Notes: a model not told the origin generated them from the sequence alone. 24,000 nucleotides of DNA from an uncultured Sneathia sp. (GCA_902494065.1 CABURZ010000010.1:1-24000), one strand, 5' to 3'. Numbered from the stretch's first letter, positions 1,185 through 22,793 are shown. Translations and numbers: made by a program.

Positions 1185-1213
1185 ATTGTACAATGTTTAT
1201 TAAATTTAATCAA
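1185..1213 (-). promoter_or_regulatory. Putative sigma70-type promoter for the MFS gene
   Basis: Minus strand reads TTGATT (1213-1208), 17 nt, TACAAT (1190-1185), about 30 nt upstream of the AGGAGA/ATG. Confidence 0.4.
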
Positions 1214-1214
1214 A

Positions 1215-1246
1215 CGAAAAAAGACCCCAACGGAAGTCTTTTTTAA
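1215..1246 (-). terminator. Rho-independent terminator downstream of gpmA (hairpin flanked by A and T runs, potentially bidirectional)
   Basis: AAAAGAC (1217-1223) pairs with GTCTTTT (1238-1244) around a 14-nt loop. On the minus strand the stem is followed by TTTTTTCGTTT. Confidence 0.6.
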
Positions 1247-1283: not shown

Positions 1284-1973
1284 TTAAAAACTTTCTGGTT
1301 TAGATAAAATATTTAAATTTTCATCTATATCAAATATTAAAGGTTTACCAGTTGTTAAATTTAGGTTCAATATATCTTCATCAGATATCTTCAATAAATA
1401 TTTTATCAATGCTCTCAAACTGTTACCATGAGCTGCAATTATTACATTCTTACCTTGTTTTATTTCCTTAGAAATAACATCATTCCAGTAAGGAAGAACT
1501 CTTTGTATAGTATCTTTTAAACTTTCTCCTCTTGGACATTCTTCATCTGTCAAGTCTTTGTATCTTCTGTCAAATTTAGGATATCTTTCTTTATCTGTTA
1601 CTTCTACATGTGGAGGAGCAACATCAAAACTTCTTCTCCAAATATGTACTTGTTCATCACCATATTTTTTAGCAGTTTCAGCTTTATTTAATCCTTGTAA
1701 TGCACCATAGTGTCTTTCATTTAATCTCCAAGATTTGTATACTGGTAGGTATAATTGATCTATACCTTCTAAAACATAATTAAGAGTTTTTATAGCTCTT
1801 TTTTGGTATGAAGTATAAGCAACATCAAATTGTATGCCTAAGTCTTTTAAAACTTTACCACCATTTTTAGCTTCTTCTACTCCTTTTTCAGTCAAATCAA
1901 CATCTGTCCACCCAGTAAATTTATTTTCTAAATTCCAAGCACTTTGTCCATGACGTATTAAAACTAATTTCAT
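1284..1973 (-). CDS. gpmA: 2,3-bisphosphoglycerate-dependent phosphoglycerate mutase
   Basis: [29 protein letters not shown] is the classic dPGM histidine-phosphatase N-terminus, with RHYGALQG and [10 protein letters not shown] motifs. The start was moved to the ATG at 1973 (MKLVLIRHG) because AGGAGA sits 9 nt upstream. The track's upstream ATG at 1994 overlaps that SD. Confidence 0.92.
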
Positions 1974-2005
1974 AATGCGTATTTCTCCTTTCAAGTTATA
2001 AAATT

Positions 2006-2034
2006 ATTATACAATAATTTAGTTAAATTATCAA
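2006..2034 (-). promoter_or_regulatory. Putative gpmA promoter
   Basis: Minus strand reads TTGATA (2034-2029), 17 nt, TATAAT (2011-2006). Confidence 0.5.
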
Positions 2035-2182
2035 TAAAATAGAAAATGAAAAACAAATATATTAAGCAAAGGGATGTGTAAAATTTATTTATCACTTAAA
2101 AAAGAATAAAATATTCTACATTTATTATATAAAAGAAAAGAAATATTTTTATAAAGTACAAATTATGTTAAAAAACATTGAT

Positions 2183-2212
2183 TTGACAATATTTTTTAAG
2201 TGTTGGTATAAT
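2183..2212 (+). promoter_or_regulatory. Near-consensus sigma70 promoter with extended -10 and no protein gene downstream
   Basis: TTGACA (2183-2188), 18 nt, TGgTATAAT (2204-2212). Confidence 0.55.
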
Positions 2213-2218
2213 GAATTA

Positions 2219-2363
2219 CTTTTTCTTTAAAAAGTATTGCAAATTTCAAAAAATCTCTCTTGCATACGTTTTGGGGTAATTAGTATGCGGGATTATTTTA
2301 GGAAAGTGTGTGATTAAGCTTATCTAAAGTAACAAAAAAAAGTCGCGTTATGCGGCTTTTTTT
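2219..2363 (+). ncRNA. Candidate small non-coding RNA (~145 nt) bounded by its own promoter and terminator
   Basis: Lies between the promoter at 2183-2212 and the terminator at 2334-2363. Predicted hairpins: ACTTTTT/AAAAAGT (2217-2234), CTTGCATAC/GTATGCGGG (2259-2291), and TTATTTTAG/CTAAAGTAA (about 2293-2332). There is no SD-led ORF. A single-stranded C/U-rich stretch AAUCUCUCUU sits at about 2251-2260. Confidence 0.4.
2334..2363. terminator. Bidirectional rho-independent terminator (ends the candidate sRNA on + and the PTS/deglycase operon on -)
   Basis: A8 run, stem AGTCGC (2341-2346) / GCGGCT (2352-2357) with one G-U pair, loop GTTAT, then a T7 run. This gives a U-tail on either strand. 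Confidence 0.65.
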
Positions 2364-2444
2364 GCATGGTGTATTATAAACAAAAATTAAAAAATAACAC
2401 TAAAACCATATTTTGTTACATTAAACTTCAATTTAAGTTATAGA

Positions 2445-3449
2445 CTAATATTTTAAACTTCTATAATATCTTCTAATTTCCATTGGATGTCGTGTTTGCA
2501 ATTCCATATATGCATCTATTCTGTTTGTAATTGCATGTAACACTAAATGAGATATATGTTTTCTAAATTTTTCTTTTATTCCTTTTAATTCGTATTCCTT
2601 GGTATCTATTATAGTATAATTTTCGCATATTCTTGGTAAGAAATTAGCTACTCTTTCTGATAAACACCTTTGATTATCTTCACCCACAAAAACAGTAACT
2701 GGAGTTTCTTTAGTTACAATTTCAAACATTCCATGAAAAAATTCACCTGATCTTATTGATTTTGTTTTCATCCAAAGTTGCTCTTCCCAATAGCACATAG
2801 CATAAGAATATGTTGCTCCCCATTGATTTCCGCTTCCAACAAAATAGTGAATTTTATCCTCACAATGCTTTAATGCAAATTTTTGGGCAAACTCATCTGA
2901 AATTTTTTCAACATCAACCAAAACTTTCGGAAGATACTCTTGTAAATTTTCATATAACTCATTATACTCATCAAACTCTTTATTATTATGCATAAATCTA
3001 TCAGCTATCATAAAAAATTTTAACTGCTCATTCGCTTTATAAGAAATCGATTCATCACATAATTCATGTAATTTTGCATTTTCATTATCAATAAATCCAA
3101 CTACCGTTGATCCTATTTTTTTTATTTTCTCAATAGATTTTACAAGTTCTTCTGTAGTTCCTGTTACAGATGAAAAAATAACAACAGTTTCGTCTGTAAT
3201 TCTTTTGTTTGGTGTTGCTAAATATTCACTAGCATTTTCAATTATAACTTCTATTTTCGAATATTCTTTAATATGTTCAAAAACTTGCATGCTAGACGCC
3301 CACGTCCCACCTATTCCTATAAAACATATATTTTTATACCCTTTTTCGCATATATCATCAACTATTTTATTTATTCTACTCCTTAAACCTAAAGCTCCTC
3401 TAACGCTTTCGATTTGTTTTTTTTCATCAAACTTTAGCAATTCAATCAC
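2445..3449 (-). CDS. FrlB/GfrF-like fructoselysine-6-phosphate deglycase (double SIS-domain protein)
   Basis: The SIS motif ICFIGIGGTWASS, FSSVTGTTEE, SGEFFHGMFE and the C-terminal EIRRYYRSLKY parallel E. coli FrlB (..ERRYYGGLVEY). The track start is a GTG directly abutting the upstream stop. A TTG at 3440 preceded by AGGTGA is an alternative start. Confidence 0.8.
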   Translation of the reverse strand: MIELLKFDEKKQIESVRGALGLRSRINKIVDDICEKGYKNICFIGIGGTWASSMQVFEHIKEYSKIEVIIENASEYLATPNKRITDETVVIFSSVTGTTEELVKSIEKIKKIGSTVVGFIDNENAKLHELCDESISYKANEQLKFFMIADRFMHNNKEFDEYNELYENLQEYLPKVLVDVEKISDEFAQKFALKHCEDKIHYFVGSGNQWGATYSYAMCYWEEQLWMKTKSIRSGEFFHGMFEIVTKETPVTVFVGEDNQRCLSERVANFLPRICENYTIIDTKEYELKGIKEKFRKHISHLVLHAITNRIDAYMELQTRHPMEIRRYYRSLKY

Positions 3450-4424
3450 CTACACTTTACTTTTTAATACTTTATCAAAATCATCAAATATTCTTTTTTC
3501 AAGATCAATTAATTTTAATTCTGAAATTCTATAACTTAAAACTTGAACAATACTCGCCATATATAGACTTATAAATTGCGTTGAATGCTTAAAATCAAAT
3601 GTTTTTTTAACATAATTTGACATATAACATTGCAACATTTTACTTCTTTTTATATTTTTGTCATCTATATTCAAAAACATTAACACATAATTTTTACTTG
3701 CTTCTAAATATGGCCCATGCATATATTGTTCCAACTCATACCCACTAGATGGAACTCTGACAGTCTCTGTAAATTTTGTTTCAAATTCTTTAGCTATACC
3801 ATATAAATCTCCATACGCAATACAAATAAATCTATCGCATAATTTAAAAATTTCACTATTTTCACAACAAACTTTATTTGCTAACTCAATTGCACTAGGT
3901 ATTTCGTTTATTATACTACGCAATTCTTTTCTGTATTTAGTTTTATTAATTTTTGAATTTTCTATTGCTAGTAAATATAGATTTAAAATTGTAGCACTAA
4001 AACCTTTTGTAACAAATCCTACCTTTTCCTCTCCTATATTTAAATCCAAAAAATAGTCGCTCTCATTTGCTAATTTACAATTTTTATTAGATGTAATAGT
4101 TAAAATCTCTACATTAGAAACTTTTCTAACATATTCATATGCATCTAAAATAGATGCACTTTTGCCACTTTGTGTAATTAAAATCACCAAATCTATATTA
4201 TTATTCATTTTTGAATAATTTATATAATTAAATGGCTCAACAATACTCACACTACAATCTAAAACATTTTGAATAAAATATTTTGTAGATAATGCTGCAT
4301 TTTTTGATGATCCTGTTGCAATTATTAATATGTTTTTTTTGCTATGTATATCAATATTTTTAAAATTATCTAAAATATTTAATAATACTTTTTTTTCTTC
4401 TAAAATGTAATCATACATAGTCAT
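3450..4424 (-). CDS. SIS-domain sugar-phosphate isomerase/deglycase (GfrE-like, second deglycase of the operon)
   Basis: ILIIATGSSKNAA and ITQSGKSAS SIS motifs, plus a second SIS half with HGPYLE. AGGAG lies 9 nt before the ATG. The stop abuts the next gene. Confidence 0.75.
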   Translation of the reverse strand: MTMYDYILEEKKVLLNILDNFKNIDIHSKKNILIIATGSSKNAALSTKYFIQNVLDCSVSIVEPFNYINYSKMNNNIDLVILITQSGKSASILDAYEYVRKVSNVEILTITSNKNCKLANESDYFLDLNIGEEKVGFVTKGFSATILNLYLLAIENSKINKTKYRKELRSIINEIPSAIELANKVCCENSEIFKLCDRFICIAYGDLYGIAKEFETKFTETVRVPSSGYELEQYMHGPYLEASKNYVLMFLNIDDKNIKRSKMLQCYMSNYVKKTFDFKHSTQFISLYMASIVQVLSYRISELKLIDLEKRIFDDFDKVLKSKV

Positions 4425-4425
4425 A

Positions 4426-5247
4426 CTACAACACTCCTAAGAAAGCCATTAATATTCCAAATATTGCAATACCTAATATAATAGAAACTGGTTTAAATTT
4501 TTTACCTAATAAATAATAAATTACTCCAAACGCTAATAATTGAGGTATTCCTGGCATAATATCATTTAATATATCTTGCAGAACAAATGGATTTGTTTTA
4601 CCTATCGTTAAAGGAATATTAATGTCAATTAAACTTGCAACCATACTTCCTACAACAAAAACTCCTAATATTGAAGCTCCATAAGTTAACTTAGATAAAC
4701 TTCCTGATTTTTCAATATTTTTTAAACTACCTATTCCAAACTTATATCCAATAAATGTCAAAATATATCTAATAGCTATATGGGGTATGTTGAATATTAA
4801 CAAAAACATTATAGGCCCTAAAATGCTCCCTTTAAGTGCTAACGATGTTCCTACACCTGTAGCAACCAATCTTAAAGTTCCCCAAAAGAATGAATCCCCT
4901 ATACCTGATAAAGGCCCCATAAGTGCTGTTTTAATATTATTTACTGAATTTTCATCTAAATTATTCTCATTTTTATTTTCTTCTTCCATTGCTGCACTTA
5001 TACCCAACATTAATGTAGAAATATGAGGAGTTATATTAAAAAATTCTAAATGTCTTTTTAATGCTTTACTTAATTCTTCTTTTTTTGTATATATTTTTTC
5101 TAAAACTGGAATTAATGCATATACATACGCCAAACTCATTTGTCTTTCATAATTCCAAGAAAACTCCATTTGAAACGATCTCCAAAACACTCTTTTTAAA
5201 TCTTTTTTATTAATTATTCTGTTATTATCTTCATTAAAAGTCTTCAT
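4426..5247 (-). CDS. PTS mannose/fructose/sorbose-family EIID component
   Basis: FWRSFQMEFSWNYERQMSLAYVYALIP is the typical EIID N-terminus, followed by a multi-TM C-terminus. GGAGGTG is the SD. The gene overlaps EIIC by 14 nt. Confidence 0.85.
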   Translation of the reverse strand: MKTFNEDNNRIINKKDLKRVFWRSFQMEFSWNYERQMSLAYVYALIPVLEKIYTKKEELSKALKRHLEFFNITPHISTLMLGISAAMEEENKNENNLDENSVNNIKTALMGPLSGIGDSFFWGTLRLVATGVGTSLALKGSILGPIMFLLIFNIPHIAIRYILTFIGYKFGIGSLKNIEKSGSLSKLTYGASILGVFVVGSMVASLIDINIPLTIGKTNPFVLQDILNDIMPGIPQLLAFGVIYYLLGKKFKPVSIILGIAIFGILMAFLGVL

Positions 5248-5998
5248 CTTCTACACCTCCTGCAACATTCAAAATACTATTTTTATTAATATTTACCATA
5301 ATAACAGCTATTATTGCTCCTAATATTGCCATACCTGTTAATGGTACTTTTAAATATACTGTTACTGCAAATCCTAAGAATAAAAATGGTGTTATATCTT
5401 TATTAAGTAATAATCTTGCAAGCATTGCAAATCCTAATGCTGGCATTATACCAGTAGCAACAGCTAAACCATGTTTTATAAATTCTGGTATTGAATTTAC
5501 TAAACTTGATACAGCTTCACTTCCAACTAAATACGATATAGTCACTATTAGACCTAACATCAATGATAGTCCAAAACCAGATATAAATTGCATTCTTTCT
5601 ATTCCTTTCACATCAGCTTTCTCCGCATACTCATTTGCTCTATGATTTAATATAGGTATAAACAATCCTAAATAAACATTTTTTAAAATTAAAGTAAATG
5701 TTGCTATAGGTAACGCAAGAAGTAATGCTGTTTCTACACCTGCTCCTGATGAAATTGCAAAAGCTACACCTAATATTCCTCCTGTAACTGGATCTGGTGG
5801 AATAGAGGCTCCTACTGAAAAAGATCCTATAAAAGCTAACTCTAACGTTGCTCCCATAATTATACCCATTTTTATATCACCAAGTATCAGCCCAGTAACC
5901 ATACCAGTTACTAATGGACGTGATATAAGAGATGTCCCAAGAGCATATTCACATTGTGCTACAAATGCAACTAATCCTAATAAAACTGCTGTAATCAT
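5234..5998 (-). CDS. PTS mannose-family EIIC component
   Basis: Polytopic membrane protein of about 254 aa, positioned between EIIB and EIID. ATGA start/stop overlap with EIIB. Confidence 0.85.
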   Translation of the reverse strand: MITAVLLGLVAFVAQCEYALGTSLISRPLVTGMVTGLILGDIKMGIIMGATLELAFIGSFSVGASIPPDPVTGGILGVAFAISSGAGVETALLLALPIATFTLILKNVYLGLFIPILNHRANEYAEKADVKGIERMQFISGFGLSLMLGLIVTISYLVGSEAVSSLVNSIPEFIKHGLAVATGIMPALGFAMLARLLLNKDITPFLFLGFAVTVYLKVPLTGMAILGAIIAVIMVNINKNSILNVAGGVEDEDF

Positions 5999-6468
5999 AT
6001 TTTCTCTTCCTTTCTATACAATTGTTTTTTATCCAACGGCAATTGTCTTATTTCAATTTCAATATTTTTATCTAATAAATCATCCAATAATTTTTCTTCT
6101 GTCTTTGTTATATTTACTGCTTTAGATATATTTTTCGTATTATCAGTTGCTTTAGTACCACCTAAATTTATACTTTTAATATTACAGTTTGTTGCAATTT
6201 TATACGCATCTTCTATATTTTCTACTATTATAATTAAATCATATTTTGAAGTTACTCCAGAATTTATAGCTTCAATAGAATTTTTTATATTTTTTATTAC
6301 TAATTTACATCCTTCTGGCTTTGCTAATTTCAACGTTGTTTTATATACTTCATCATCAACTACTTTATCATTTGATATTAAAATGCAATTACAATTTAAA
6401 TTTTTAACCCATGAAAACGCAACTTGACCATGAAGCAATCTATGATCTACCCTCAGTAATTGTATCAT
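5995..6468 (-). CDS. PTS mannose-family EIIB component
   Basis: MIQLLRVDHRLLHGQV matches the EIIB-Man phospho-histidine signature (R-[IV]-D-x-R-L-[IL]-H-G-Q). Confidence 0.9.
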   Translation of the reverse strand: MIQLLRVDHRLLHGQVAFSWVKNLNCNCILISNDKVVDDEVYKTTLKLAKPEGCKLVIKNIKNSIEAINSGVTSKYDLIIIVENIEDAYKIATNCNIKSINLGGTKATDNTKNISKAVNITKTEEKLLDDLLDKNIEIEIRQLPLDKKQLYRKEEKI

Positions 6469-6878
6469 TAAAAATCATCCTCACTTTCTGTTAATATTAT
6501 TTTATTACACCATTTAATTTGATTTTTACTTTCATTTATAACTTTATTAATATATTTATCATCTATATAATCTTGATTTGATATAATATCTATTAATAAT
6601 GGAAGGTTTATTCCAGTTATTAAAAATATTTTTTTATCATCTACTAAACCTAATATATAATTATTTACACTCCCTCCAAAAATGTCTGATAAAAAAATCA
6701 GTTTTTTATCTTTATATTTTTCTAAAATATTTTCGATAGTTGCCTCAAGATTAAAATTTTGATCAGTATAACAAGGAATTGCAATTACATTAAAGTACTC
6801 TCCTATAAGCATTTCAAGACTACTTTTTATACCTACCGCAAAATTCCCATGTGTTATTATTACAAATTGTTTATCCAT
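6468..6878 (-). CDS. PTS mannose-family EIIA component
   Basis: FVIITHGNFAVG is the EIIA-Man active-site His context. The start was moved to the ATG at 6878 (MDKQF), preceded by GGGAGGG. The track start at 6896 is a GTG upstream of that SD. TAATG overlap with EIIB. Confidence 0.85.
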   Translation of the reverse strand: MDKQFVIITHGNFAVGIKSSLEMLIGEYFNVIAIPCYTDQNFNLEATIENILEKYKDKKLIFLSDIFGGSVNNYILGLVDDKKIFLITGINLPLLIDIISNQDYIDDKYINKVINESKNQIKWCNKIILTESEDDF

Positions 6879-7061
6879 AAATCCCTCCCACACCACTATA
6901 ATACTTTGTAAAAAAACAATGTCAAATATTCAACTTTTTTCGTTAATGTAAAATTTATACACTTTATTTTAATCAATATTTAAGGTATAATCAGAAATAT
7001 AAACGAATGTAATTATATGCTTTTTTCGTTTTGAAATTGCTTATTTAGAGGGGTTTTGTCA

Positions 7062-8297
7062 ATGAATTTAAAAAATTATAAAATATTTTTACCTTTTTAT
7101 CATATAAAAATTTATCATAATAGAAAATTTTCTAAAAATGATATAATTTTTAAAAACTATATTATTAAAAATATATTAACTAACCAAGAACAAATCATAA
7201 CTATTTCACAAAAAGAATTAACACAAATTCTAAAATTAAATACTTATGAAACAACAGATGAATTCATGGAAAAATTTAAGATTAAACATTTTATATTTCA
7301 TATAGAAACTGAAAATACTTATGATGGCTTTTTCAATATATTAGATGGATTCATAAAATGCAATGGTAATTATAAATTATTAATATCATCTACATTTTTT
7401 GATATTTTCACAAAACAAGAAACCGAACTAAAAGAATATAAATTAGATGATTTACTAAAATTTTCTAGCACTAGCATTTCTAGTCTTTATAGTTTTTTAC
7501 AAAATTTTTTAAAAGATGAAAAAGTCAAAATAACATTACAACAATTAAAATATATTATGGATATAAATGAAAACAAATATGAAAGATTTTTTGATTTTGA
7601 AAAATTAATTTTGAAGCCTAGTATAAAAGAAATTGAAAAATATACTACTCTTAAAGTAACCTATTCAAAATTAAAACAAAATAACCAAAAAAATGAAAAA
7701 GTTATTGGAATATTATTTAGTATAAAAGATATATCAAATGAAATTTTAGATAAAAAATTAAAAAAGATTAGCAAATTAATACAAGCTTATTGCAAAAATT
7801 ATGATATAATCATTAAGTTTATACAAAAAGAATTAGACAAAAAAACATTTAGTTATATTTTAGAAAACACACAATATGCACTTATGCATCCTAAAAATAA
7901 TTTTGAATTATCTCTAATTTCAGCAATAAAATACAATTCATACAAAAATGAATTTTATAAAAAAGTGCAAAGTTATCTAGATAAATATAAAATCATTACA
8001 TATGAAAGCATTTTATTAAAAAACAAAACTGATTTTTCTAATTTATTTATAAAAGAATTAAATAAACACGATATAGAACAATTATCTAAAGTTATTCCAT
8101 TTTTAAAAAATTTATTTGATTTATTTGATAACTCAGTAACACTCCCTTCAAGTATAAAAGAAAATAGATTTTATAATGATATTTTCCTAAGCTTAGATAA
8201 AAAGAATGAATTTATTTTTAAAGAATCAAATATTATTATTTTAGGTGAATATAACGGTTCTTTAAATAGTAATTTTTGTATATTGGTAAAAAAGTAG
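7062..8297 (+). CDS. Rep_3/RepB-type (iteron-plasmid) replication-initiator-like protein with an unassigned ~180-aa C-terminal extension
   Basis: SSLYSFLQNFLKDEKVKITLQQLKYIMDINENKYERFFDFEKLILKPSIKEIEKYTTLKVTYSKLKQNNQKNEKVIGILFSIKD follows the winged-helix-2 pattern of theta-plasmid Rep_3 initiators (..Y-x-x-L..; Y-x-R-F-x-D-F-x-x-x-[VI]-L-x-P-x-[IV]-x-E-I; T-x-L-x-V-x-Y; K-[VI]-x-x-[IL]-x-F-x-I). The upstream ITISQKELTQILKL...FIFHIETEN...LLISSTFFDIF resembles WH1. GAGGGG lies 8 nt before the ATG at 7062. Pattern recognition only, with no HMM run. Confidence 0.6.
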   Translation: MNLKNYKIFLPFYHIKIYHNRKFSKNDIIFKNYIIKNILTNQEQIITISQKELTQILKLNTYETTDEFMEKFKIKHFIFHIETENTYDGFFNILDGFIKCNGNYKLLISSTFFDIFTKQETELKEYKLDDLLKFSSTSISSLYSFLQNFLKDEKVKITLQQLKYIMDINENKYERFFDFEKLILKPSIKEIEKYTTLKVTYSKLKQNNQKNEKVIGILFSIKDISNEILDKKLKKISKLIQAYCKNYDIIIKFIQKELDKKTFSYILENTQYALMHPKNNFELSLISAIKYNSYKNEFYKKVQSYLDKYKIITYESILLKNKTDFSNLFIKELNKHDIEQLSKVIPFLKNLFDLFDNSVTLPSSIKENRFYNDIFLSLDKKNEFIFKESNIIILGEYNGSLNSNFCILVKK

Positions 8298-8384
8298 CAA
8301 ATTGGGCAATGGTAATAAATCAATTAGCAATGGATACAAATATACATTCTAAAATATTAAAATATGAGAAATATTAAAAATAGC

Positions 8385-8422
8385 GAGACTATAATTTTTT
8401 TTATACATTACTTTATAGTCTC
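8385..8422. other. 10-bp inverted repeat (possible weak terminator between the rep-like gene and the adhesin gene)
   Basis: GAGACTATAA (8385-8394) pairs with TTATAGTCTC (8413-8422) around an 18-nt loop. On the minus strand it is followed by GCTATTTTT. The large loop makes terminator function uncertain. Confidence 0.3.
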
Positions 8423-8451
8423 ACTAAAATAAAATTTATATAAAATTAAAA

Positions 8452-8507
8452 AAATTTACACAATTTACTTGACAAACCCAAATTTACACAATTTACTTGA
8501 CAAACCC
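8452..8507. repeat. Perfect tandem direct repeat, 2 x 28 bp (AAATTTACACAATTTACTTGACAAACCC), iteron-like
   Basis: 8452-8479 and 8480-8507 are identical. Each unit contains two AATTTAC sub-repeats and a TTGACA. A ~30-bp pure A/T stretch (8425-8458) precedes it. Confidence 0.95.
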
Positions 8508-8511
8508 TAAT

Positions 8512-10482
8512 TCAGTTAATTTTATTTGAAATTAATAACTTTTCTAGTCTATCAACCTTATCTTTATATTCCTTTAATTCTCTTTCTAAATTTTCAACCT
8601 TTTTATCATTTACTAAATATCTATTTTTGCCTAAAACTACTCCAATTCCAGCTCCTACTGCAATATTTCCTTTATTATTAATTGATCCACTTAGTTTATA
8701 TACAAAGTTACCACTATTATTTTGTCCACTAATTCCTATTGCTAGTGAATGTGATGCTCCATAATATCCATACGCTGCACTTAGATTAAATTTATCATCC
8801 CCACTTACTTGTGGTAGATTTGCTATTGCAATAGCGTTTGATACTCCACTTAAAGCTAAATCTGATTTCTCATTTGCATCATCTATTCTTTTATTCATTT
8901 GTTTTTTTTCTTTTGATGATAAACTTGCCCCTTTTGTTATATCTTTAAAAAATTCATCTTCTGTTGCATTAGGTTTTTTATTTTTATCTTTCCATACTTC
9001 AAAGGCACTCTTTCCATCTTTTCCATTATTTCCCTTTTCTCCTTTAAGTGATGCTATAAAGTCTGATTCACTCTTACCTTCATTACCTTTTTGTTTTAAC
9101 CAACTTTGATATGCTGATTCTCCATCACCTTTAGCTCCTTTTTCTCCTTTAAGAGAAGCTAAGAAATCTTGCACTGATTTATCTTTATTTTTAACATCTG
9201 ATTCTTTCCATATTTCATACGCACTCTTACCTACTTTTGTACTTACTTCTCTATCTACATAGCTTTTCATTTGTTTTAGTTGTGCAACATTAACAGCATC
9301 TGTGTCATTAGTTCCTGCTGCAAGATTTGTTAATTGTCTTGCATAACCAGTTTGCCCAATTGATAGTGCTCCTGCAGTTGATTTCCAAATACTTATTATA
9401 TCTCTATTTGCTTTAACAGCTGGTATAAAATCCTTGTTATTATCAAGCCATTCTTTTTTCTCTTTTTCAATTTTTGCTTTTTCTTCTTTTGTACTTGCAT
9501 TTTCATATTTAGTTATCATTGCATTATATTCATCTTTTTTATTTGCAATTATTTTTTTATTTTTTTCATATTCTTCTTTTTTATCAGTCATTTTCAAAAT
9601 TTCATCAATACTAGTAATTTCTTTTGTAACGCCATATCCAAGCTGACCTTTGTCTTTATCGGCAACAGAATTTTCTCCTAATGCTATACCGCCTTCTACA
9701 TTTGATTTTGAAAAGGATCCTATTGAAACTCCAAAATCTTTATCTGATTTAGAACTAAGACCAAATGCAATTGTTCCCTTATTCAATGCTTTAGCACCAT
9801 TCCCCATAGCCTGAGAACCAATACCACTAGATATAGTATGATCTCCTATTGCAATCGAACTTCTTTTTGTTTATTCCGCTTTATGACCTATTGATATTGC
9901 ATATGTTTCTGTTGCTTTTGATTCATCACCTATAGTAACTCCTCTACTAGCTTTTGAATACGCTTTATTTCCTATTGCTACCGTGCTTAGCGACAACGCT
10001 TCTGCATTATGACCTATTGCTACTGTATTTTCATAGGTACTAGTTTGGGCATCAGTACCAATTGCTATAGAATTAGGCCCATTTGATTTAGTATTTATAC
10101 CAATTGCTATGCTGTTTTGCCCTTGGGCAAAAGAATCATCACCTATTGATATATTTTTATCATGATATGCTTGAGCATTTTCCCCAATTTCAATTTTATT
10201 TTTATTTGATTTCAAAAGTGAAAAAATAAAATCTATTTTATTTAATTTACTTTTATATTTTTCAACATTATTAACCTTAACTTTTTCAAATTTTAATTTT
10301 TCACCACTAGTTAATTTATTATATTCATCATATGATACATAAATGTATTCTGAATTTTCAGATGTTTCTTCTTTAACAGAAGCACTTTCTTCCCCATATA
10401 CAAAATTTCCACAAATAAAAAGATCTATTATCAATAAAATACCTCTTTTACTTCTTTTAAAATTCCCTTTAGTATCTTCCAT
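8512..10482 (-). pseudogene. YadA-like trimeric autotransporter adhesin interrupted by one in-frame TAA (two track ORFs, 9871-10482 and 8512-9807, share a frame)
   Basis: The N-terminal part has a signal-like segment and YadA head repeats (NSIAIG, SIAIGTDA, TVAIGHNAEA, TVAIGNKAYS, AISIGHKAE). After the TAA at 9871-9873 the same frame continues TKRSSIAIGDHTISSGIGSQAMGNGAKAL with more head repeats. It then carries the neck motif RQLTNLAAGTNDTDAVNVAQLKQ and the YadA anchor (NAIAIANLPQV...FNLSAAYGYYGASHSLAIGISG...IAVGAGIGVVLG). The distance 10482 to 9807 is 675 nt, which is divisible by 3. Confidence 0.85.
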
Positions 10483-10502
10483 CTAAATCATCTCCTCAAT
10501 AA

Positions 10503-10529
10503 ATTGTACCCCCCCACCACGTTTTTCAA
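10503..10529 (-). promoter_or_regulatory. Putative adhesin promoter with a homopolymeric G tract in a 15-nt spacer
   Basis: Minus strand reads TTGAAA (10529-10524), aacgtggtGGGGGGG (15 nt), TACAAT (10508-10503), then GAGGAGA 8 nt before the ATG at 10482. Confidence 0.45.
10509..10515. repeat. C7/G7 homopolymer tract
   Basis: Seven consecutive C on the plus strand, which is conspicuous in this A+T-rich DNA. It lies entirely within the promoter spacer above. Confidence 0.95.
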
Positions 10530-10624
10530 GGCATTTTATTTTTTCTTTATTAACCTTTATTTATTATTTAGTTATACTTGTGTATCTATTGATTTTTAAA
10601 CTTCAAACTTTTATTTACCAAATT

Positions 10625-10650
10625 AAAAATGCCACAAATGTGGCATTTTT
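10625..10650 (-). terminator. Rho-independent terminator after trxA (symmetrical A5/T5 flanks)
   Basis: AAAAATGCCACaaatGTGGCATTTTT: 7-bp GC-containing stem, 4-nt loop, 6 nt after the trxA stop. Confidence 0.65.
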
Positions 10651-10655
10651 AATTC

Positions 10656-10988
10656 CTATTTTGTTGCTTTTTCAACTTCACTAGCTAATTGTTCTTTTGA
10701 TCTTCCACCAATTAATGTTTCAACTGGTTTACCATCTTTAAATATTACTATAGTTGGTATACTTCTAACTCCGTAAAATGCTGCCAAATCTTGATATTGA
10801 TCAACGTCTACTTTAACTATGCTATAATCCACTTCTTCACTTAATTCATCTAAAACAGGTCCTAGTGCACGACAAGGTCCACACCAAGTAGCAAAGAAAT
10901 CAACTACTGTAACACCATTTTTTGTTACAACTGTTTCTAGCATATTGTCAACGTTATTTTCTCCTCCATAATGTATTACTTTACTCAT
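10656..10988 (-). CDS. trxA: Thioredoxin
   Basis: FFATWCGPCRALGPVL has the WCGPC active site in a ~110-aa protein. GGAGGG SD. The gene starts 9 nt after the nox stop, so it is probably co-transcribed. Confidence 0.92.
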   Translation of the reverse strand: MSKVIHYGGENNVDNMLETVVTKNGVTVVDFFATWCGPCRALGPVLDELSEEVDYSIVKVDVDQYQDLAAFYGVRSIPTIVIFKDGKPVETLIGGRSKEQLASEVEKATK

Positions 10989-10997
10989 TTTACCCTC

Positions 10998-12326
10998 CTA
11001 TTTAGCAGATAATGCTGCCATTGTTATATAATTATATGGTTGATTAAAGTGTGGCAAGAAGAATATATCTAACAATTTAAATTTATCAATTGTAATTCCT
11101 TCTTGTATTGCAAGTGAGAACACGTGAATTCCCATTGAAATATCATACTTAGATGCTATTTGTGCTCCAACTATTCTTCTGCTTCCTTTTTCATATACTA
11201 TTTTTATCATAACTTTTTCATTTTTACTTTCCATAAATCCTGGTTTTTGTAAGTCTGAAAAACTTGTTGATAAAACATCCATACCTAAAGCTTTTGCTTT
11301 TTCTTCTGATAATCCAGTAGAAACCATGTTAAATCCATAAATAGATATACCGTTTGAGCCTTGAACACCTATTGATTCTAATTTTGTTCCACACGCATTA
11401 TGAGCCGCTATTATTCCTGATCTAACTGCATTAGTTGCAAGTGCTATATAGTTTATACCTCTTACTGCATTATCATATATAGTCGCACAATCTCCTATAG
11501 CATACACATCTTTTACACTTGTTTGTTGTGTTCTATCAACCTTGTATGCATTCTTGAATAATTCTAATTTATCTTTCAATAAATCTGTATTAGGTCTAAA
11601 TCCAACACACATTATTACCATATCAGTAGCTATTTCACCCTTATCAGTTAAAACTGATTCTACTTTATTAGTTCCCTTTATTTCTAATAATTTTTCACCA
11701 TAGTGTGTTTTAATTCCATTTTCAACTAATACCTTATTCATTTCACATCTAAATTCTTTATCATAATATGTAGATAGACACATATCACATGCATCAAGTA
11801 ATGCTACTTCTTTACCTAGTCTCTTAAATGCTTCTGCTAATTCTACTCCTATGTATCCTGCACCAACAACAGTTACGTGATTAATACTTTCATGATTTAA
11901 TTTATCAATAACTTCTTTTGCATTTTGGAATAATTTAACAAATTGAACATTTTCTAATTCTCTACCTTTAATTGGTAAATCAATAGGTAATGATCCTGTT
12001 GATAATATTAATTTGTCATAGCTTTGTTCATAAGTTTTGCCATCTTTCCCTTTAGCATATACCATTTTTTTATCAAAGTCAATATTAGTAACTTCTGTTT
12101 CCATATATACTTTTGCACCTTTTGATTCAAAAACATCTTTTGAACAATAAAACAATCCGTCTGATCCTTTAATTTGTTTACCAATCCATAATGCCATACC
12201 ACAACCAAGAAAACTTAAATTATTATTTTTTTCAAAAATTACAACTTCATTCCCCTTGTAATTATCTAAAATTGTATTTATTGCAGCTGTTCCTGCATGG
12301 TTTGCACCTATTACTACAATTTTCAT
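10998..12326 (-). CDS. nox: NADH oxidase (pyridine nucleotide-disulfide oxidoreductase, single redox-active Cys type)
   Basis: [14 protein letters not shown] is the FAD-binding fold. [14 protein letters not shown] matches the Nox/Npx active-site Cys motif, and [15 protein letters not shown] is the NAD fold. The start was moved to the ATG at 12326 (MKIVVIG), preceded by GGAGG. The track start at 12338 includes that SD. Confidence 0.85.
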
Positions 12327-12365
12327 TTCTACCTCCATTATTGTTAAAGTTTACTTTACATGTTT

Positions 12366-12393
12366 ATTATATCACATTAAATTTTTTTTGCAA
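12366..12393 (-). promoter_or_regulatory. Putative nox-trxA promoter
   Basis: Minus strand reads TTGCAA (12393-12388), 16 nt, TGaTATAAT (extended -10, TATAAT at 12371-12366). Confidence 0.5.
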
Positions 12394-12411
12394 GAAATTT
12401 GCTAACATTGT

Positions 12412-12437
12412 AAAAAAAAAGGCTAGTTTCCTAGCCT
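12412..12437 (-). terminator. Rho-independent terminator of the ABC importer operon
   Basis: Minus strand reads AGGCTAG-gaaa-CTAGCCT followed by T9. The stem touches the ATPase stop codon. Confidence 0.75.
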
Positions 12438-13147
12438 TATTTTATTACATCAAATATCTCTTTTTTTATCTTACTCATAGCTTCTTCATTTTTTTCTATA
12501 TTAAACTTTTTTACAAATCTTCCAGGCTTTCCTAAAAGAACATATACTGTATCTGCTAATTTAATAGCTTCATCAATATCATGCGTAATCAAAAGACAAG
12601 TTAAATTTAAATCTTTTTTTAAATTTAAAAACCAATCATACATTCTATTTTTTGTAATATAGTCTAATGCTGAAAAAGGTTCATCTAGCAACACAACTTT
12701 ATCACTAAACATATATGTACGAAATAATGCTACTCTTTGTCTTTGACCACCTGATAATTCACGTGGATATCTTTTAAGTAAACCCTCTAGTCCAAACTTT
12801 TCTACATTTTTCTCTATTTTATTTCTTATTTTCTCTTTGTCTACACCTTGAATTATTAGGGGTAATGCAATGTTATCATAGACAGTATAAAAATCAAGTA
12901 ATAAATCTTTTTGTAGCATATAGCTTAATTTAGCAGTTTTTCCTGTGATATTTTCATTATCAAAATATACATTTCCACTTGTGGGTACTAAAATTCCTGC
13001 CAAAATATTAAACAATGTTGATTTACCTACTCCACTAGGTCCTATTACCCCTACTGTTTCATTTTCACTAACCTCAAAAGATATATTGTCTAATATTTTT
13101 TCATTTCCAAAACTATGACTAATATCTTTAATGTTTAAGATATTCAT
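12437..13147 (-). CDS. ABC transporter ATP-binding protein (ThiZ-like; nitrate/sulfonate/taurine-type family)
   Basis: Walker A GPSGVGKST, signature LSGGQRQRV, Walker B VVLLDEPFSALD. The ATG at 13147 (MNILNIKD) is preferred over the track GTG at 13165 because AGGA lies 7 nt upstream. Confidence 0.85.
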   Translation of the reverse strand: MNILNIKDISHSFGNEKILDNISFEVSENETVGVIGPSGVGKSTLFNILAGILVPTSGNVYFDNENITGKTAKLSYMLQKDLLLDFYTVYDNIALPLIIQGVDKEKIRNKIEKNVEKFGLEGLLKRYPRELSGGQRQRVALFRTYMFSDKVVLLDEPFSALDYITKNRMYDWFLNLKKDLNLTCLLITHDIDEAIKLADTVYVLLGKPGRFVKKFNIEKNEEAMSKIKKEIFDVIK

Positions 13148-14102
13148 TTGTAAATCCTGCTCCACTTTCTAATTTTTTATCTATTAATTTTTTGTCATAT
13201 AACCAATTATAGAATCTATCCCATCTATTTTTATCAATTACTCCCCATTTTCCATCTTTTGTTAAATAGAAATTAGCTATACTCTTTTGGCTTTCACGAA
13301 TAAGTTCTGGATTACCTTCAGGTGCATTTTTAATTAAAATATCAGCTGCTTTATCAGGATTTTCTACAGCATATCTATAACCTTTTTCTAAAGCAATTAA
13401 TACTTTTTTAGCTATTTCTGGTTTTTGTTTTAAAAATTCATTATTAGCTATTAATACTGGTGTATAATAATCAAATTTAGGTTCGTAATCTGCTAGATAG
13501 AAGAAATTAACATCTACTCCTTTTAATCTTGCATTAATCAAATCCCAATTACTGTATACTATAATATAGTCATATTGATTTGCTTTTAGTCCTGCTGTCG
13601 CATCTGTACTTTCTCCTGGAACCATTTTTAAGTCATTACCAACTATTTCTCTTACTGTTGCATCATCAATAGGATCTTCCCATGTAGAATATCTTTTTCC
13701 ACTTAAATCCTTAGGACTATTAGCTCCAAGTGATTTCAAACTCATAAGTCCTGCTGTATTTTTTTGTAATATAGCTGCTATTGCAGTAATAGGTGTATTT
13801 TTCAACAATCTTTTTACCATATTTGGTTGAAAATATATTCCAAGTTCTGCTCTACCTGCTCCAACTATACTAGCTGAACTATCTTCTGCTGGTTGCACTA
13901 TATCTAAATCTATACCTTGTTCCTTAAAATATCCTAAATCTTTTGCAACAAATATACCAGTATGATTTGTATTTGGTACCCAATCTAAAACAAGAGTTAC
14001 CTTTTCTAATTTTGCACTTTCTGCTTGCTTTTTAGGTCCGCAACTAATTAAAGTAAATAGTAAAACTACAACTTCAAATAAAACCATTAATTTCTTTTTC
14101 AT
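13128..14102 (-). CDS. NMT1/THI5-like ABC substrate-binding lipoprotein (ThiY-like, probable hydroxymethylpyrimidine/thiamine-precursor binding)
   Basis: Lipoprotein signal with lipobox LISC. LDWVPNTNHTGIFVAKDLGYFKEQGIDLDI is typical of the NMT1/THI5 fold. The operon lies downstream of a TPP riboswitch. Confidence 0.8.
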   Translation of the reverse strand: MKKKLMVLFEVVVLLFTLISCGPKKQAESAKLEKVTLVLDWVPNTNHTGIFVAKDLGYFKEQGIDLDIVQPAEDSSASIVGAGRAELGIYFQPNMVKRLLKNTPITAIAAILQKNTAGLMSLKSLGANSPKDLSGKRYSTWEDPIDDATVREIVGNDLKMVPGESTDATAGLKANQYDYIIVYSNWDLINARLKGVDVNFFYLADYEPKFDYYTPVLIANNEFLKQKPEIAKKVLIALEKGYRYAVENPDKAADILIKNAPEGNPELIRESQKSIANFYLTKDGKWGVIDKNRWDRFYNWLYDKKLIDKKLESGAGFTNEYLKH

Positions 14103-14113
14103 TTTTCCTCCTA

Positions 14114-14842
14114 CTAATTTTTTACAATTTTCTTTTCTAATACATCAATTAATGACATAAGTACTAGACTTAGAAAAGTTATGAAAAATATTACTGCAAA
14201 CATCTTATCTAAGGCAAAAGCTTTTTTAACTCTTGTCATATATACTCCAAGTCCATAATATCCACCTAGCCATTCCGCAACAACTGCTGATATCAATGAA
14301 TATGACATTGATACCTTAAGTCCTGAGAAAAAATAGCTAAAGCTTGTTGGTATTTTTAAATAACGGTACATTTGATATGTATTAGCTCCCATTGATTTCA
14401 ATAAATTTATCTTATCAATATCTACTGACTTATATCCATTTAATAACGATATAGTTATGGGAAAGAAAGTAGATAAAACAACTAATACAATTTTAGGTTT
14501 CATGTAATAACCTAACCATATTATTAAAAGTGGTGCAATTGCTATCGTCGGTATAGTTTGAGTTAAAATTATCACTGGATAAACCATATCATATATGGGT
14601 GTATATAGATCCATAAGTAGTGATAATACAAAACTAAGCAATATCCCTATAGCAACACCTATAAATGCAACTGTTAAAGTAAAATACGTATGTTGCATTA
14701 GTAAATTAAAATCTAGATAAAAAGCTTTTATAACTTGATATGGTGATGGTAGCAAAAATTCAGATATTAAATGAAATCTACACATAATTTCCCATATAAT
14801 TATTAAAATTATTACTAGACTATAATTTTTAATCTTCTTCAT
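14114..14842 (-). CDS. ABC transporter permease (ThiX-like)
   Basis: Six-TM BPD-type permease. The start was moved to the ATG at 14842 (MKKIKNY), with GGGGAG 8 nt upstream. The track's N-terminal 15 aa (to 14887) are translated riboswitch expression platform. Confidence 0.8.
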   Translation of the reverse strand: MKKIKNYSLVIILIIIWEIMCRFHLISEFLLPSPYQVIKAFYLDFNLLMQHTYFTLTVAFIGVAIGILLSFVLSLLMDLYTPIYDMVYPVIILTQTIPTIAIAPLLIIWLGYYMKPKIVLVVLSTFFPITISLLNGYKSVDIDKINLLKSMGANTYQMYRYLKIPTSFSYFFSGLKVSMSYSLISAVVAEWLGGYYGLGVYMTRVKKAFALDKMFAVIFFITFLSLVLMSLIDVLEKKIVKN

Positions 14843-14875
14843 AAAAAAAACTCCCCTACGAGAGTCAAATGCACT

Positions 14876-14962
14876 AAAAAATAACATAACTCCCTACGTC
14901 AGAATTACCTGTATCAGGTTAAGGGTATAATCTCAGCCTAAGCACCCCTGTTTGTTAATAAT
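14876..14962 (-). promoter_or_regulatory. TPP (THI-box) riboswitch
   Basis: Minus strand reads ACAGGGGTGCttaGGCTGAGAttatACCCTTAACCTGATaCAGGTAATtCTGACGTAGGGAG, which carries all the conserved THI-box blocks (GGGGTGC, CTGAGA, ACCC, AACCTGAT, GGTAAT, CGTAGGGA). It is followed by a weak hairpin plus T8 that embeds the SD. Confidence 0.92.
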
Positions 14963-14990
14963 ATTATACATCATTTAAAAAAAATATCAA
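14963..14990 (-). promoter_or_regulatory. Putative promoter driving the TPP riboswitch/ABC operon
   Basis: Minus strand reads TTGATA (14990-14985), 16 nt, TATAAT (14968-14963), immediately upstream of the aptamer. Confidence 0.5.
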
Positions 14991-15011
14991 TAATTTTTAT
15001 AGTTTATATTT

Positions 15012-15046
15012 TCACAAAATAAATAACCTCTAGAATCCTAGAGGTT
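15012..15046 (-). terminator. Rho-independent terminator after the porin gene
   Basis: Minus strand reads AACCTCTAG-gatt-CTAGAGGTT (15046-15025) followed by ATTTATTTTGTG. It starts 12 nt after the stop. Confidence 0.65.
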
Positions 15047-15058
15047 AAAATATTGATA

Positions 15059-16351
15059 TTACCATTTATATTCAACATTTAAACTAGTCTTAATTGTTGT
15101 TGATTTATAATCAAATTTTGAATTAACATTACCAAATTCTATAGGTAATTCCACTCCACCTTTAAGTGTTAAGTTTTCAATTGGTTTGTATTCAGCATTA
15201 ACTTTTGGAGTTAATGTTAAATTAGGAGTTACAATTCTTTTTTTGCCTTGCATATATGTGACTAAACTTACATATGCATTAGCTTCAGGTGATACCTTAA
15301 ATTTATTAGTTACATCATAGTTGTATTTAACATTTACATCAAATACAAATATTCCTTGTGTTAATTTAATTCTATCTTTAACATCATCAATCTTTGAAAC
15401 AAATTTAACATCACTTGTTCTTCCTGCTAATAAAGTTTTACCAGTTAATGTTAATTTATCATTTAGCATTTTATATTCAGCACCAAATTCTGAACCATAC
15501 ACTATAACATTTTTCTTTTCATCTTCAGATATTTTGTATCCATTAAAATGTGCTACAAAAGGTTTAGCCATTATTGTTAAATGTTTTATTCCTGTATATT
15601 CAGCATTTAATTCATATGAATGCATATATCTAATTGGTGCTTCAGCATATAATTTGTAGTTTAACATTTTGTATTCATCTTTCAAGTCGCTGTTTATATT
15701 TCTCTTAAAATTAACTTTACCAGTTAACTTAAGATCTTTTACTTTATCATATGTTGCTTCTGCTTCTCCACTTACGTTTTTAATAGCTTTTGCATTCTTT
15801 TCAATTGTATTGTATGTATGAACTAATTTAATGTTTGCTTTTACATCTTTTAATACTGATGCTTCTTTCGCTTCTACATATAGCTTATGTTCTGATACTG
15901 TTTCTTCTCCTAACTTTTTATTTTCTTCTAATTTCAATGAGAGTGTAGTATTAGAATTTAATCCAACTTTCACACCATTTATTGTGTAATTTACATCATC
16001 CTCTAAGTTTAATTTAGTTGTTTCTTTGTATGTTGCTTTTATACTTGAATTTATACCTTTTATTTCTGGTAATTCATATTTTGCCCATACATTTGAGTCT
16101 TTAGTAGCTAATGCATATGATGGAGCAGCTATAAATCCTTTAACATCTTTTAATTTAAATTCTCCTCCAAAGCTAAATCCTGTATCTTTTACTTTAACTT
16201 CTGTACCTATTTTTGATTCAGAAATTTTGTGTTCTTGTATTGTTTTTTCAAATTTTGATTCAGTTCCTGTACCTAAATATACTTTACCTGTAGTTCCACT
16301 AGCTACAGCAGTCATTGCAATTAAGCTTGCTAACATAAATGTTTTTTTCAT
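15059..16351 (-). CDS. Outer-membrane beta-barrel protein (putative porin), family not recognised
   Basis: Signal peptide MKKTFMLASLIAMTAVASG. Long runs of alternating polar/hydrophobic residues suggest beta-strands. C-terminal ...LNVEYKW is an aromatic terminus typical of BAM substrates. AAGGAGA SD. Confidence 0.65.
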   Translation of the reverse strand: MKKTFMLASLIAMTAVASGTTGKVYLGTGTESKFEKTIQEHKISESKIGTEVKVKDTGFSFGGEFKLKDVKGFIAAPSYALATKDSNVWAKYELPEIKGINSSIKATYKETTKLNLEDDVNYTINGVKVGLNSNTTLSLKLEENKKLGEETVSEHKLYVEAKEASVLKDVKANIKLVHTYNTIEKNAKAIKNVSGEAEATYDKVKDLKLTGKVNFKRNINSDLKDEYKMLNYKLYAEAPIRYMHSYELNAEYTGIKHLTIMAKPFVAHFNGYKISEDEKKNVIVYGSEFGAEYKMLNDKLTLTGKTLLAGRTSDVKFVSKIDDVKDRIKLTQGIFVFDVNVKYNYDVTNKFKVSPEANAYVSLVTYMQGKKRIVTPNLTLTPKVNAEYKPIENLTLKGGVELPIEFGNVNSKFDYKSTTIKTSLNVEYKW

Positions 16352-16415
16352 TGTTTTTTTCTCCTTTTTCTTTAAAAACTTAATTATTTTATAGTAGTCA
16401 TGTATATTTTAATGT

Positions 16416-16432
16416 AAAAAAAAAAAAAAAAA
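16416..16432. repeat. A17/T17 homopolymer tract
   Basis: 17 consecutive A on the plus strand (T17 on the coding strand), 65-81 nt upstream of the porin ATG and about 100 nt downstream of the cellobiose-operon EIIA stop. Confidence 0.95.
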
Positions 16433-16535
16433 GAGGCAAATAAAAAAATATTAGTTTCTTTTTTAGCTCTCTTTTTATTTTTGTTTATATATTACCATAC
16501 ATTATTTAACCATTTTTGATTTTTTTAAGCATTTT

Positions 16536-16853
16536 CTAATTCTTTTTAATCTTATCACAAAGTTTAATTAATTTAGTTGCAAGATTCTTAATTTCTATAG
16601 CACTCATCAAATGGTCTTGTGCGTGTATAAATAGTACAGATAATTCTGTTTTTTCACCACTAACTTCTTTTTGTATTAAATTAGTTTGTACTTCATGAGC
16701 TTTTAGTAAAAATTCTTCAGATTCTTTTATCTTTTCATTTGCCTTATCTATTTTACCATCTATCGCAAGATCTATAGCTTCATAACAAAGTCCTTTAACA
16801 TTACCTGCATTACTAATTATTTCAAATATTATTGTTTCCATTTCTTCACTCAT
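16536..16853 (-). CDS. PTS lactose/cellobiose-family EIIA component
   Basis: ~105-aa helical protein with the ...FIHAQDHLMSA phospho-His signature of the ChbA/CelC/LacF family. Confidence 0.9.
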   Translation of the reverse strand: MSEEMETIIFEIISNAGNVKGLCYEAIDLAIDGKIDKANEKIKESEEFLLKAHEVQTNLIQKEVSGEKTELSVLFIHAQDHLMSAIEIKNLATKLIKLCDKIKKN

Positions 16854-16862
16854 TTTTCCCCC

Positions 16863-18239: not shown

Positions 18240-18251
18240 ACTTCCTCCTTT

Positions 18252-18893
18252 TTAAAATATTTTCACATCTTTTGTAGTTGGACTAAAATATGATTTTATT
18301 ACCACAACCATATTTCTATTTTCATCATAAATCATATTTTTAATTATCACAATAGGTGTATTTAAACTAACATTTAAAAGCTTTGCAAATTTTACTGGTA
18401 TAATTTCAGCATAAATTTTTTGAATAATTTGCATTTTTTTTAGTTTTTCTATTCCTTCTTTATTTAAATTTACAAATATTCCTTGTATCTGTTCATCTTC
18501 ACTATTTACAAAAACTTCTTCTATGCTAACTAATTCATCATCTTTTTTTGTTAAATATATCAATCTTTCAACATTTGAATCTTCAAATATTTCTTTATTG
18601 TCAATATAGTAATTTAGATTAAGATACACAAGCTTAAAATCAGTATAGTCATCAAAAAACGGAAATAATAATATATTTAGATTAGGTTTCTTTTTAACAA
18701 ATGTACCTACATTATTTTTTTTGTACAAATAACCTTCTTCAACTAATATATTTATTATCTTCCTTGCTGTAATTTTAGAAATACCTTTATACTCTGCAAG
18801 ACTTCGCTCAGAATAAAATTGTTCTTCTAATTCAAACCCTTTCAATTCTTCTATCAATTCTAAAACTATTTTTTCATAAACTTTTTCAGCCAT
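18252..18893 (-). CDS. GntR-family (HutC/UTRA-like) transcriptional regulator
   Basis: The N-terminal winged HTH SERSLAEYKGISKITARKIINILVEEGYLYKKNNVGTFV fits the GntR pattern. 8-nt ATGGCTGA overlap with the upstream ORF. Confidence 0.8.
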   Translation of the reverse strand: MAEKVYEKIVLELIEELKGFELEEQFYSERSLAEYKGISKITARKIINILVEEGYLYKKNNVGTFVKKKPNLNILLFPFFDDYTDFKLVYLNLNYYIDNKEIFEDSNVERLIYLTKKDDELVSIEEVFVNSEDEQIQGIFVNLNKEGIEKLKKMQIIQKIYAEIIPVKFAKLLNVSLNTPIVIIKNMIYDENRNMVVVIKSYFSPTTKDVKIF

Positions 18894-19311: not shown

Positions 19312-19320
19312 ATATCCTCT

Positions 19321-22693: not shown

Positions 22694-22793
22694 CTTCACA
22701 ATCCTTTTATGTTTCTTCCTAAATTTCGATGTATTTTACACATCCAAACAAAAGCTCACTATCCATTTAGATAAATGACCCGAAAATTCATCT

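Follow-up and report, generated by a model that had tools for sequence, protein, structure and literature searches.

Gene 7062-8297 and its product

The 24,000-nt stretch of DNA analysed here (GCA_902494065.1, CABURZ010000010.1:1-24000; hereafter the window, with positions counted from its first letter) derives from an uncultured Sneathia sp. and carries, at 7062-8297 on the plus strand, a gene for a Rep_3-fold protein that probably serves as a local regulator of the sugar operon transcribed divergently from it. The open reading frame (ORF), identified by ORF scan and translation, starts with an ATG codon preceded at 7-13 nt by an AGAGGGG ribosome-binding site, and its product of 411 amino acids (aa) is identical to a database protein (P0001) present on several metagenomic contigs. 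All other plus-strand ORFs of at least 80 aa, located at 3205-3534, 12191-12535, 15321-15659 and 16026-16394, overlap either a longer minus-strand gene with a Pfam match or a longer ORF, thus leaving 7062-8297 as the sole free-standing plus-strand gene of the window, as already stated in a preliminary description of this DNA. The same description had reported the gene as more A+T-rich than its neighbours, and its G+C (GC) fraction is indeed 0.177 vs. 0.283 in the remaining window. Since the GC content of the gene was lower than that of its surroundings in 10/10 family loci tested, the low value is better read as a family trait than as a mark of recent transfer.

Three portions can be delimited in the protein, namely a first winged helix (WH1, residues ~14-117), a second winged helix (WH2, residues ~128-223) and a C-terminal domain (residues ~225-411). 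WH2 was recognised by the Pfam model Rep3_C (PF21205) at residues 159-221, with an E value of 3.8e-11 and 43.5 bits vs. a cut-off of 21.1, in agreement with the preliminary assignment of residues ~130-225 to the second winged helix of Rep_3 initiators. A weak alignment was also obtained with the NCBIfam RepE model (residues 40-226 to RepE 54-247, E=1.6e-9), far under the equivalog cut-off. The earlier proposal of a first winged helix at residues ~40-125 was sustained at the level of the fold. The Pfam hidden Markov model (HMM) for this domain, Rep3_N (PF01051), gave no match at E<=10 in the 411-aa protein vs. 84.5 bits for a canonical Rep_3 protein used as control (locus L038), and the WH1-like fold was nevertheless seen in the RepE alignment, in the AlphaFold (AF2) model and in the structure search.

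The AF2 model of the full protein has a predicted local distance difference test score (pLDDT) of 76.8. When used as a Foldseek query, it matched the RepE dimer-operator complex 2z9o (E=3e-8), RepE54 (1rep), a Rep-DNA unwinding element (DUE) complex (8ac8) and domains 2-3 of RctB, with E values from 3e-8 to 2e-5 (1.5e-6 to 1.8e-5 for the RctB structures 5tbf and 5ubf). The matches span ~216-238 aligned columns and hence both winged helices, so that the comparison with RepE-type WH1-WH2 folds suggested in the preliminary description turned out positive. Within WH2, residues K163, Y173, R175, F176, D178, E180, Y201 and K203 are invariant or near-invariant in the family.

The C-terminal domain, of ~190 aa and encoded at 7725-8294 of the plus strand, was modelled with higher scores (pLDDT 93.6, predicted template modelling score 0.87) as a five-helix bundle plus an alpha/beta subdomain, and two conserved motifs, GYxYVxxNIxYxxxHxxxNF and EYNxxxxSxIxI, were found in it by family alignment. 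A Foldseek search of the PDB returned at best a weak roadblock/LC7-like match (E=0.27), the best hit in BFVD had E=0.076, and neither a profile search of PDB sequences nor Pfam scans of 23 members gave any relative. The earlier remark that this extension matches nothing recognisable is thus borne out in Pfam, PDB and BFVD. The domain might be a sensor of an effector, such as a sugar signal, or an oligomerisation module.

Only ten close homologues were retrieved among 5.8 billion clustered proteins, and a profile search of 1.84 billion representatives yielded 160 proteins at E<1e-10. Among the best 151 representatives (clusters at 50% identity), 94 carry the C-terminal domain (median length 382 aa), the rest being shorter plasmid-type Rep_3 proteins. 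Full-length members, with 25-88% identity and a conserved C-terminal domain, occur in at least seven genera. Relatives were located on chromosomes of 1.3-2.9 Mb in Sneathia, Leptotrichia, Pseudoleptotrichia, Fusobacterium and Cetobacterium. Named members occur on the 1.33-Mb chromosome of Sneathia vaginalis (cluster at 79% identity), the 2.83-Mb chromosome of Leptotrichia trevisanii (AP019831, copy at 1.73 Mb), contigs of 2.29 Mb in Pseudoleptotrichia goodfellowii, 1.8 Mb in Fusobacterium vincentii and 2.78 Mb in F. mortiferum, and various contigs of Cetobacterium and Psychrilyobacter. Where the source records name these proteins, the name is nearly always "replication initiation protein" or "initiator RepB protein", and PGAP and UniRef apply the former label, with GO:0006270. 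The cluster at 79% identity in Sneathia points to a Sneathia-like member of the Leptotrichiaceae as the most likely source of the window.

The divergent operon and the shared intergenic boxes

On the opposite strand, at 2445-6878, lies the presumed target, an operon encoding EIIA, EIIB, EIIC and EIID of a mannose-family sugar phosphotransferase system (PTS) together with two SIS-domain proteins (Pfam, NCBIfam), the latter resembling fructoselysine-6-P deglycase, GlmS isomerase and NagB-II. Searches with the same two databases revealed no regulator gene other than 7062-8297 within or beside this operon in the window, consistent with its initial portrayal as a divergent PTS operon devoid of its usual regulator.

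The linkage between the two transcription units is conserved. All close homologues with enough flanking DNA are divergent from the same EIIA/B/C/D and two-SIS operon, which is kept at 79%, 49%, 48% and 45% identity (two contigs end inside the operon) and is still found beside the F. vincentii and C. somerae proteins, at ~32-33% identity. The flank opposite the PTS operon differs between orthologous loci. Divergent arrangements with other carbohydrate operons are seen in the more distant subfamilies, the partner being a PTS IIB-EIIC operon with a glycoside hydrolase family 4 (GH4) gene in the Cetobacterium subfamily, a DUF7916-IIB-EIIC operon in the Leptotrichia subfamily, a PTS EIIBCA operon with a GH1 gene in another subfamily and an amidohydrolase-SFCGS-DUF4312/4311/4310 operon in F. 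mortiferum. Altogether, the divergent linkage holds in 10-12 independent contexts, and its sole resolvable exception is a locus (L031) where a DDE transposase is inserted upstream.

In an alignment of five Sneathia-group intergenic regions, which have otherwise diverged, three blocks are invariant and correspond in the window to three boxes of about 10 bp, spaced by 63 and 23 bp and with one box inverted. Box 1 (TTTTTTCGTT, 6935-6944, plus strand) is invariant in the five loci and is found 10 bp upstream of the −35 element of the PTS operon. Box 2 (7001-7008, minus strand) reads AAACGAAT on the plus strand, where the core TTCGTT is inverted; it contains the block AACGAA at ~7002-7007, of which AACGA is invariant in the five loci. 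Box 3 (TTTTTTCGTT, 7021-7030, plus strand), having its CG core 35 nt upstream of the start codon, forms with box 2 an inverted pair. The candidate binding sites of the protein thus lie in 6935-7030.

The spacing of the boxes is fixed within subfamilies while the spacer sequence diverges. The CG cores of boxes 1 and 3 are 86 bp apart in 5/5 Sneathia-group loci, and the CG-to-CG distance of the inverted pair, 23 bp in the window, is 22-23 bp in nine loci belonging to five genus-level groups. Two direct copies exactly 53 bp apart are present in Cetobacterium, two inverted pairs separated by 72-73 bp in Leptotrichia, and similar box sets in F. vincentii, F. mortiferum and C. somerae. The consensus in the intergenic regions upstream of the regulator genes is TTTTTTCGT(T/C). 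Its core TTTTCGT was counted 39 times in 3,940 bp of such regions (9.9 per kb), whereas its density was 0.24 per kb in the remaining non-coding DNA and 0.07 per kb within coding sequence, an enrichment of ~40-fold over the non-coding background. No CG dinucleotide exists outside the box cores in most of the regions.

A third exact copy of TTTTTTCGTT occurs in the window at 1213-1222 (minus strand), between a phosphoglycerate mutase gene and a major facilitator superfamily (MFS) transporter gene (as by the Pfam record of the identical locus L001). Although upstream of a transporter gene, this copy constitutes the T-run of an intrinsic-terminator-like hairpin, and its resemblance to an operator is probably coincidental.

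Two promoters can be recognised in the 183-bp divergent region that holds the boxes. That of the PTS operon (6898-6925, minus strand) is of sigma-70 type, with TTGACA and TATTAT separated by a 16-nt spacer (11/12 positions), and is the best match in 6700-8700; its −35 element, read on the plus strand as TGTCAA or AGTCAA, is present in nearly all related loci. With respect to the inferred PTS start, box 1 would occupy a putative position of about −44 to −53. For the regulator gene, a −10 element (TATAAT, 6986-6991, plus strand) was deduced from a GGTATAnT block conserved among orthologues, and this would place the inverted pair of boxes 2 and 3 at ~+4 to +33 of the transcript.

Regulator, initiator or relic

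Taken together, synteny and the shared candidate operator favour one of the three readings put forward in the preliminary description, that of a domesticated DNA-binding regulator of the divergent PTS operon. We consider it probable that 7062-8297 encodes a Rep_3-derived local regulator of this operon, autoregulated and not engaged in replication initiation, a reading that builds on sequence homology and fold, on the location of the family in chromosomes, on the divergent linkage and on the enrichment and spacing of the motif. From these we infer binding of the protein to the boxes, autoregulation, an effector and the sign of regulation. In the mechanism here proposed, the protein would recognise the T-rich boxes through their CG core, and a dimer on the inverted pair of boxes 2 and 3 would repress its own gene. 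Autorepression of this kind, known for RepE dimers on the repE operator, would follow from the position of the pair just downstream of the regulator −10 element. Box 1, abutting the −35 element of the PTS promoter, would be bound by a further copy of the protein and thereby serve to control the divergent operon, probably jointly with the dimer bound in the leader and possibly by cooperation across the fixed distance of 86 bp, and the C-terminal domain would either sense a sugar signal or mediate oligomerisation. The near-consensus sequence of the target promoters makes us lean towards repression, tentatively in view of the variable distance of the boxes from the target promoters in other subfamilies.

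Several points weigh against this reading. The distance between box and target promoter is not constant, extending from ~−45 to, in Leptotrichia, over 100 bp upstream, and C. somerae and F. vincentii have degenerate forms of boxes 1 and 2. The loci, retrieved through one or two peptide patterns, do not represent random sampling; in addition, the close relationship among several of those from Leptotrichia and Cetobacterium inflates the counts given above, which are not independent. No ligand-binding or PTS-regulation fold is recognisable in the C-terminal domain. A core box nearly identical in all subfamilies would pose a problem of cross-talk in case of several paralogues per genome. Finally, the boxes could belong to another factor common to these promoters, and RNA hairpins are in principle conceivable for inverted pairs located in transcribed leaders.

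These last two possibilities make up the serious rival, according to which the boxes serve another factor (such as a global carbon regulator), an UP-element-like feature or leader RNA hairpins, and the Rep-like protein is a regulator that binds elsewhere or acts in nucleoid organisation or through protein-protein contacts with PTS components. The same core box does precede very different operons beside proteins only 25% identical, and box 1 stands at the position of an UP element. On the other hand, the motif tracks the gene family and not PTS operons in general, since no TTTTCGT box was found at the second PTS operon of the window, which spans 16.5-20.6 kb and is accompanied by a GntR-like gene. 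Single non-palindromic boxes upstream of promoters cannot form hairpins, the half-sites are conserved without compensatory change, and no Rfam match was obtained in 6500-9000. The near-invariant WH2 residues (the set from K163 to K203) are moreover compatible with a shared half-site. We judge the rival unlikely.

Much less support was found for a working initiator, in which the TTTTCGT boxes would be atypical iterons belonging to a chromid or to a secondary or back-up origin. Such a view could appeal to the Rep_3 fold, to the naming of the family in all databases as "replication initiation protein" and to the presence, beside the gene, of direct and inverted boxes resembling iterons plus operator. 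However, iterons of Rep_3 plasmids are typically 17-22 bp long, in tandem and in three or more copies, and upstream of 7062-8297 no tandem array was detected by Tandem Repeats Finder (TRF), the boxes being only 2-4, 53-86 bp apart and confined to the divergent promoter region. DnaA-box matches were 8 vs. 9.9 expected, hence without enrichment, and cumulative GC skew was monotonic across the locus, with no switch. The contrast is given by locus L038 (Ga0233449_1060109), where ~3.5 tandem 32-bp iterons (GGTTTTAAAGGGACATCAGGGGGTGATTTGAA, at ~140-260) precede a canonical Rep_3 gene matching both Rep3_N and Rep3_C, as expected of a small-plasmid replicon; TTTTCGT is absent from it and, likewise, from the canonical replicon of a Rubrivirga plasmid Rep (L020). 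Among the 72,556 plasmids of PLSDB no homologue of the full-length family resides on a small plasmid, and the single full-length relative, on the 664-kb replicon p1 of C. somerae, could speak for a secondary origin but is placed mid-replicon and adjoins the same PTS operon. Members also lie within the main chromosomes of species having a single 1.3-Mb genome, Rep3_N remains undetected in the protein, and a role in replication gives no rationale for the linkage to catabolic operons. The first of the earlier readings, in which the window would belong to a plasmid or chromid and the gene to its rep module, is accordingly contradicted by both the location of the relatives and the lack of origin features, and we regard a working initiator as very improbable.

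Also very improbable is the second earlier reading, a silent or decaying rep gene left by an integrated iteron plasmid and devoid of current function, to which the Rep_3 homology, a GC content ~10 points under that of the neighbours, the isolated orientation and a 28-bp tandem repeat downstream might point, and which is largely refuted by synteny, orthologues from 79% down to 32% identity sharing the adjacent operon and differing in the other flank. Moreover, the ORF is full length across genera and keeps its C-terminal domain, low GC is shared by all family loci tested, and neither further plasmid genes among those scanned nor the repeat in relatives were found.

A regulator of the kind favoured here would combine traits of known systems. 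With RepE of mini-F, as well as pi of R6K and RepA of pPS10, the 411-aa protein shares the two winged helices, for which 2z9o, 1rep and 8ac8 are the best structural matches, and the Rep3_C signature KYxRFxDFE; as in RepE, a candidate inverted-repeat site overlaps its own promoter or leader. It differs from them in being encoded on the chromosome, in the absence of tandem iterons, origin features and a Rep3_N HMM match, in the additional C-terminal domain of 190 aa and in a stable linkage to catabolic operons instead of a replicon. A parallel is provided by RctB, the initiator of Vibrio chromosome 2, which is of plasmid type with WH1 and WH2 and gained domains, binding sites and regulatory roles after domestication. 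RctB still initiates its replicon, whereas no replicon appears to depend on the protein described here, whose extra domain was unrelated to RctB by the searches made. In its genetic setting the gene is comparable to those of the LevR/GfrR sigma-54 activators and of GntR/DeoR-type repressors, being the lone regulator gene divergent from a mannose-family PTS or gfr-type operon, with candidate operator sites in the shared intergenic region. Unlike those regulators, it has an unrelated DNA-binding fold and no AAA+, PRD, EIIA/B, UTRA or sugar-binding domain, and the target promoter is sigma-70-like rather than of the −24/−12 type.

With moderate confidence, we further suggest that a plasmid initiator was taken over early in the Fusobacteriota and gave rise to a family of sugar-operon transcription factors (at least 94 clusters at 50% identity) having a new sensor domain and a common CG-cored box, and in which the dimer (inverted-pair) and single-box modes of binding would be inherited from the operator/iteron duality of the ancestor. 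An initiator fold that autorepresses is the known part of this picture; dedicated operon regulators appear to be the new part, and the family apparently has not been described. No description of Rep_3-derived operon regulators was found in open-access full text, by a limited search that is no proof of novelty. If correct, this would be a clear case of a replication-initiator fold turned into a set of related catabolic transcription factors, adding a class of regulators in Fusobacterium, Leptotrichia and Sneathia, members of a clinically relevant phylum whose regulation is poorly charted. It would also correct a phylum-wide mis-annotation as "replication initiation protein", a label that can mislead the detection of plasmids and chromids and rep-based replicon typing. 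The system offers a candidate operator, a confidently modelled orphan domain and a route to how dimer and monomer binding of Rep proteins becomes promoter control.

Other features of the window and of related loci

Downstream of 7062-8297, and convergent with it, are fragments of a YadA-like adhesin, followed by housekeeping and transport genes. The absence of integrase, relaxase, partition and transposase genes noted in the preliminary description applies to all genes scanned, from 1284 to 20634 (a cut gene at 1-1152 and the sequence beyond 20634 lying outside the scan). The adhesin, a trimeric autotransporter encoded on the minus strand, appears split into a YadA head-repeat ORF at 9871-10482 (203 aa) and a stalk-plus-anchor ORF at 8512-9807 (431 aa), and the region 8512-10482 may represent an adhesin made of two parts, a gene subject to phase variation or a pseudogene.

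The Rep-like and YadA-like genes converge, and their facing ends are separated by DNA that includes, at 8452-8507, a perfect 28-bp tandem duplication (AAATTTACACAATTTACTTGACAAACCC; two copies, 2.2 by TRF), containing TTGACA and an internal AATTTAC repeat and unique in the window. It was initially proposed as a binding target of the protein; having no TTTTCGT box and being absent from all of the 26 related loci compared, it was rejected both as iterons and as binding site, and is taken as a probably unrelated, strain-specific element. Closer to the 3' end of the Rep-like gene, at 8386-8428, a hairpin (GAGACTATAA ... TTATAGTCTC) flanked by an A-run and a T-run is probably a bidirectional terminator, not called by a consensus terminator scan because of the few G-C pairs in its stem. 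In four independent assemblies carrying an identical gene (L001-L004), contigs, one of them of 36 kb, end 16-126 bp past the stop codon; this suggests that assemblies break in the downstream DNA, which holds the YadA-like genes and the 28-bp repeat, because it varies or is repeated in these populations.

In four Leptotrichia loci (L014, L030, L035 and L036), two small plus-strand ORFs of 81 and 88 aa come right after the Rep-like gene (e.g., 9277-9778 in L014), with a spacing that resembles that of a toxin-antitoxin-like pair. In the window itself, an ORF of 430 aa without Pfam match (15059-16351, minus strand) is located between an ATP-binding cassette (ABC) transporter cluster and a cellobiose-type PTS/GH1 operon, and the GC fraction rises to 0.38-0.39 at 21500-23000 vs. 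~0.28 elsewhere.

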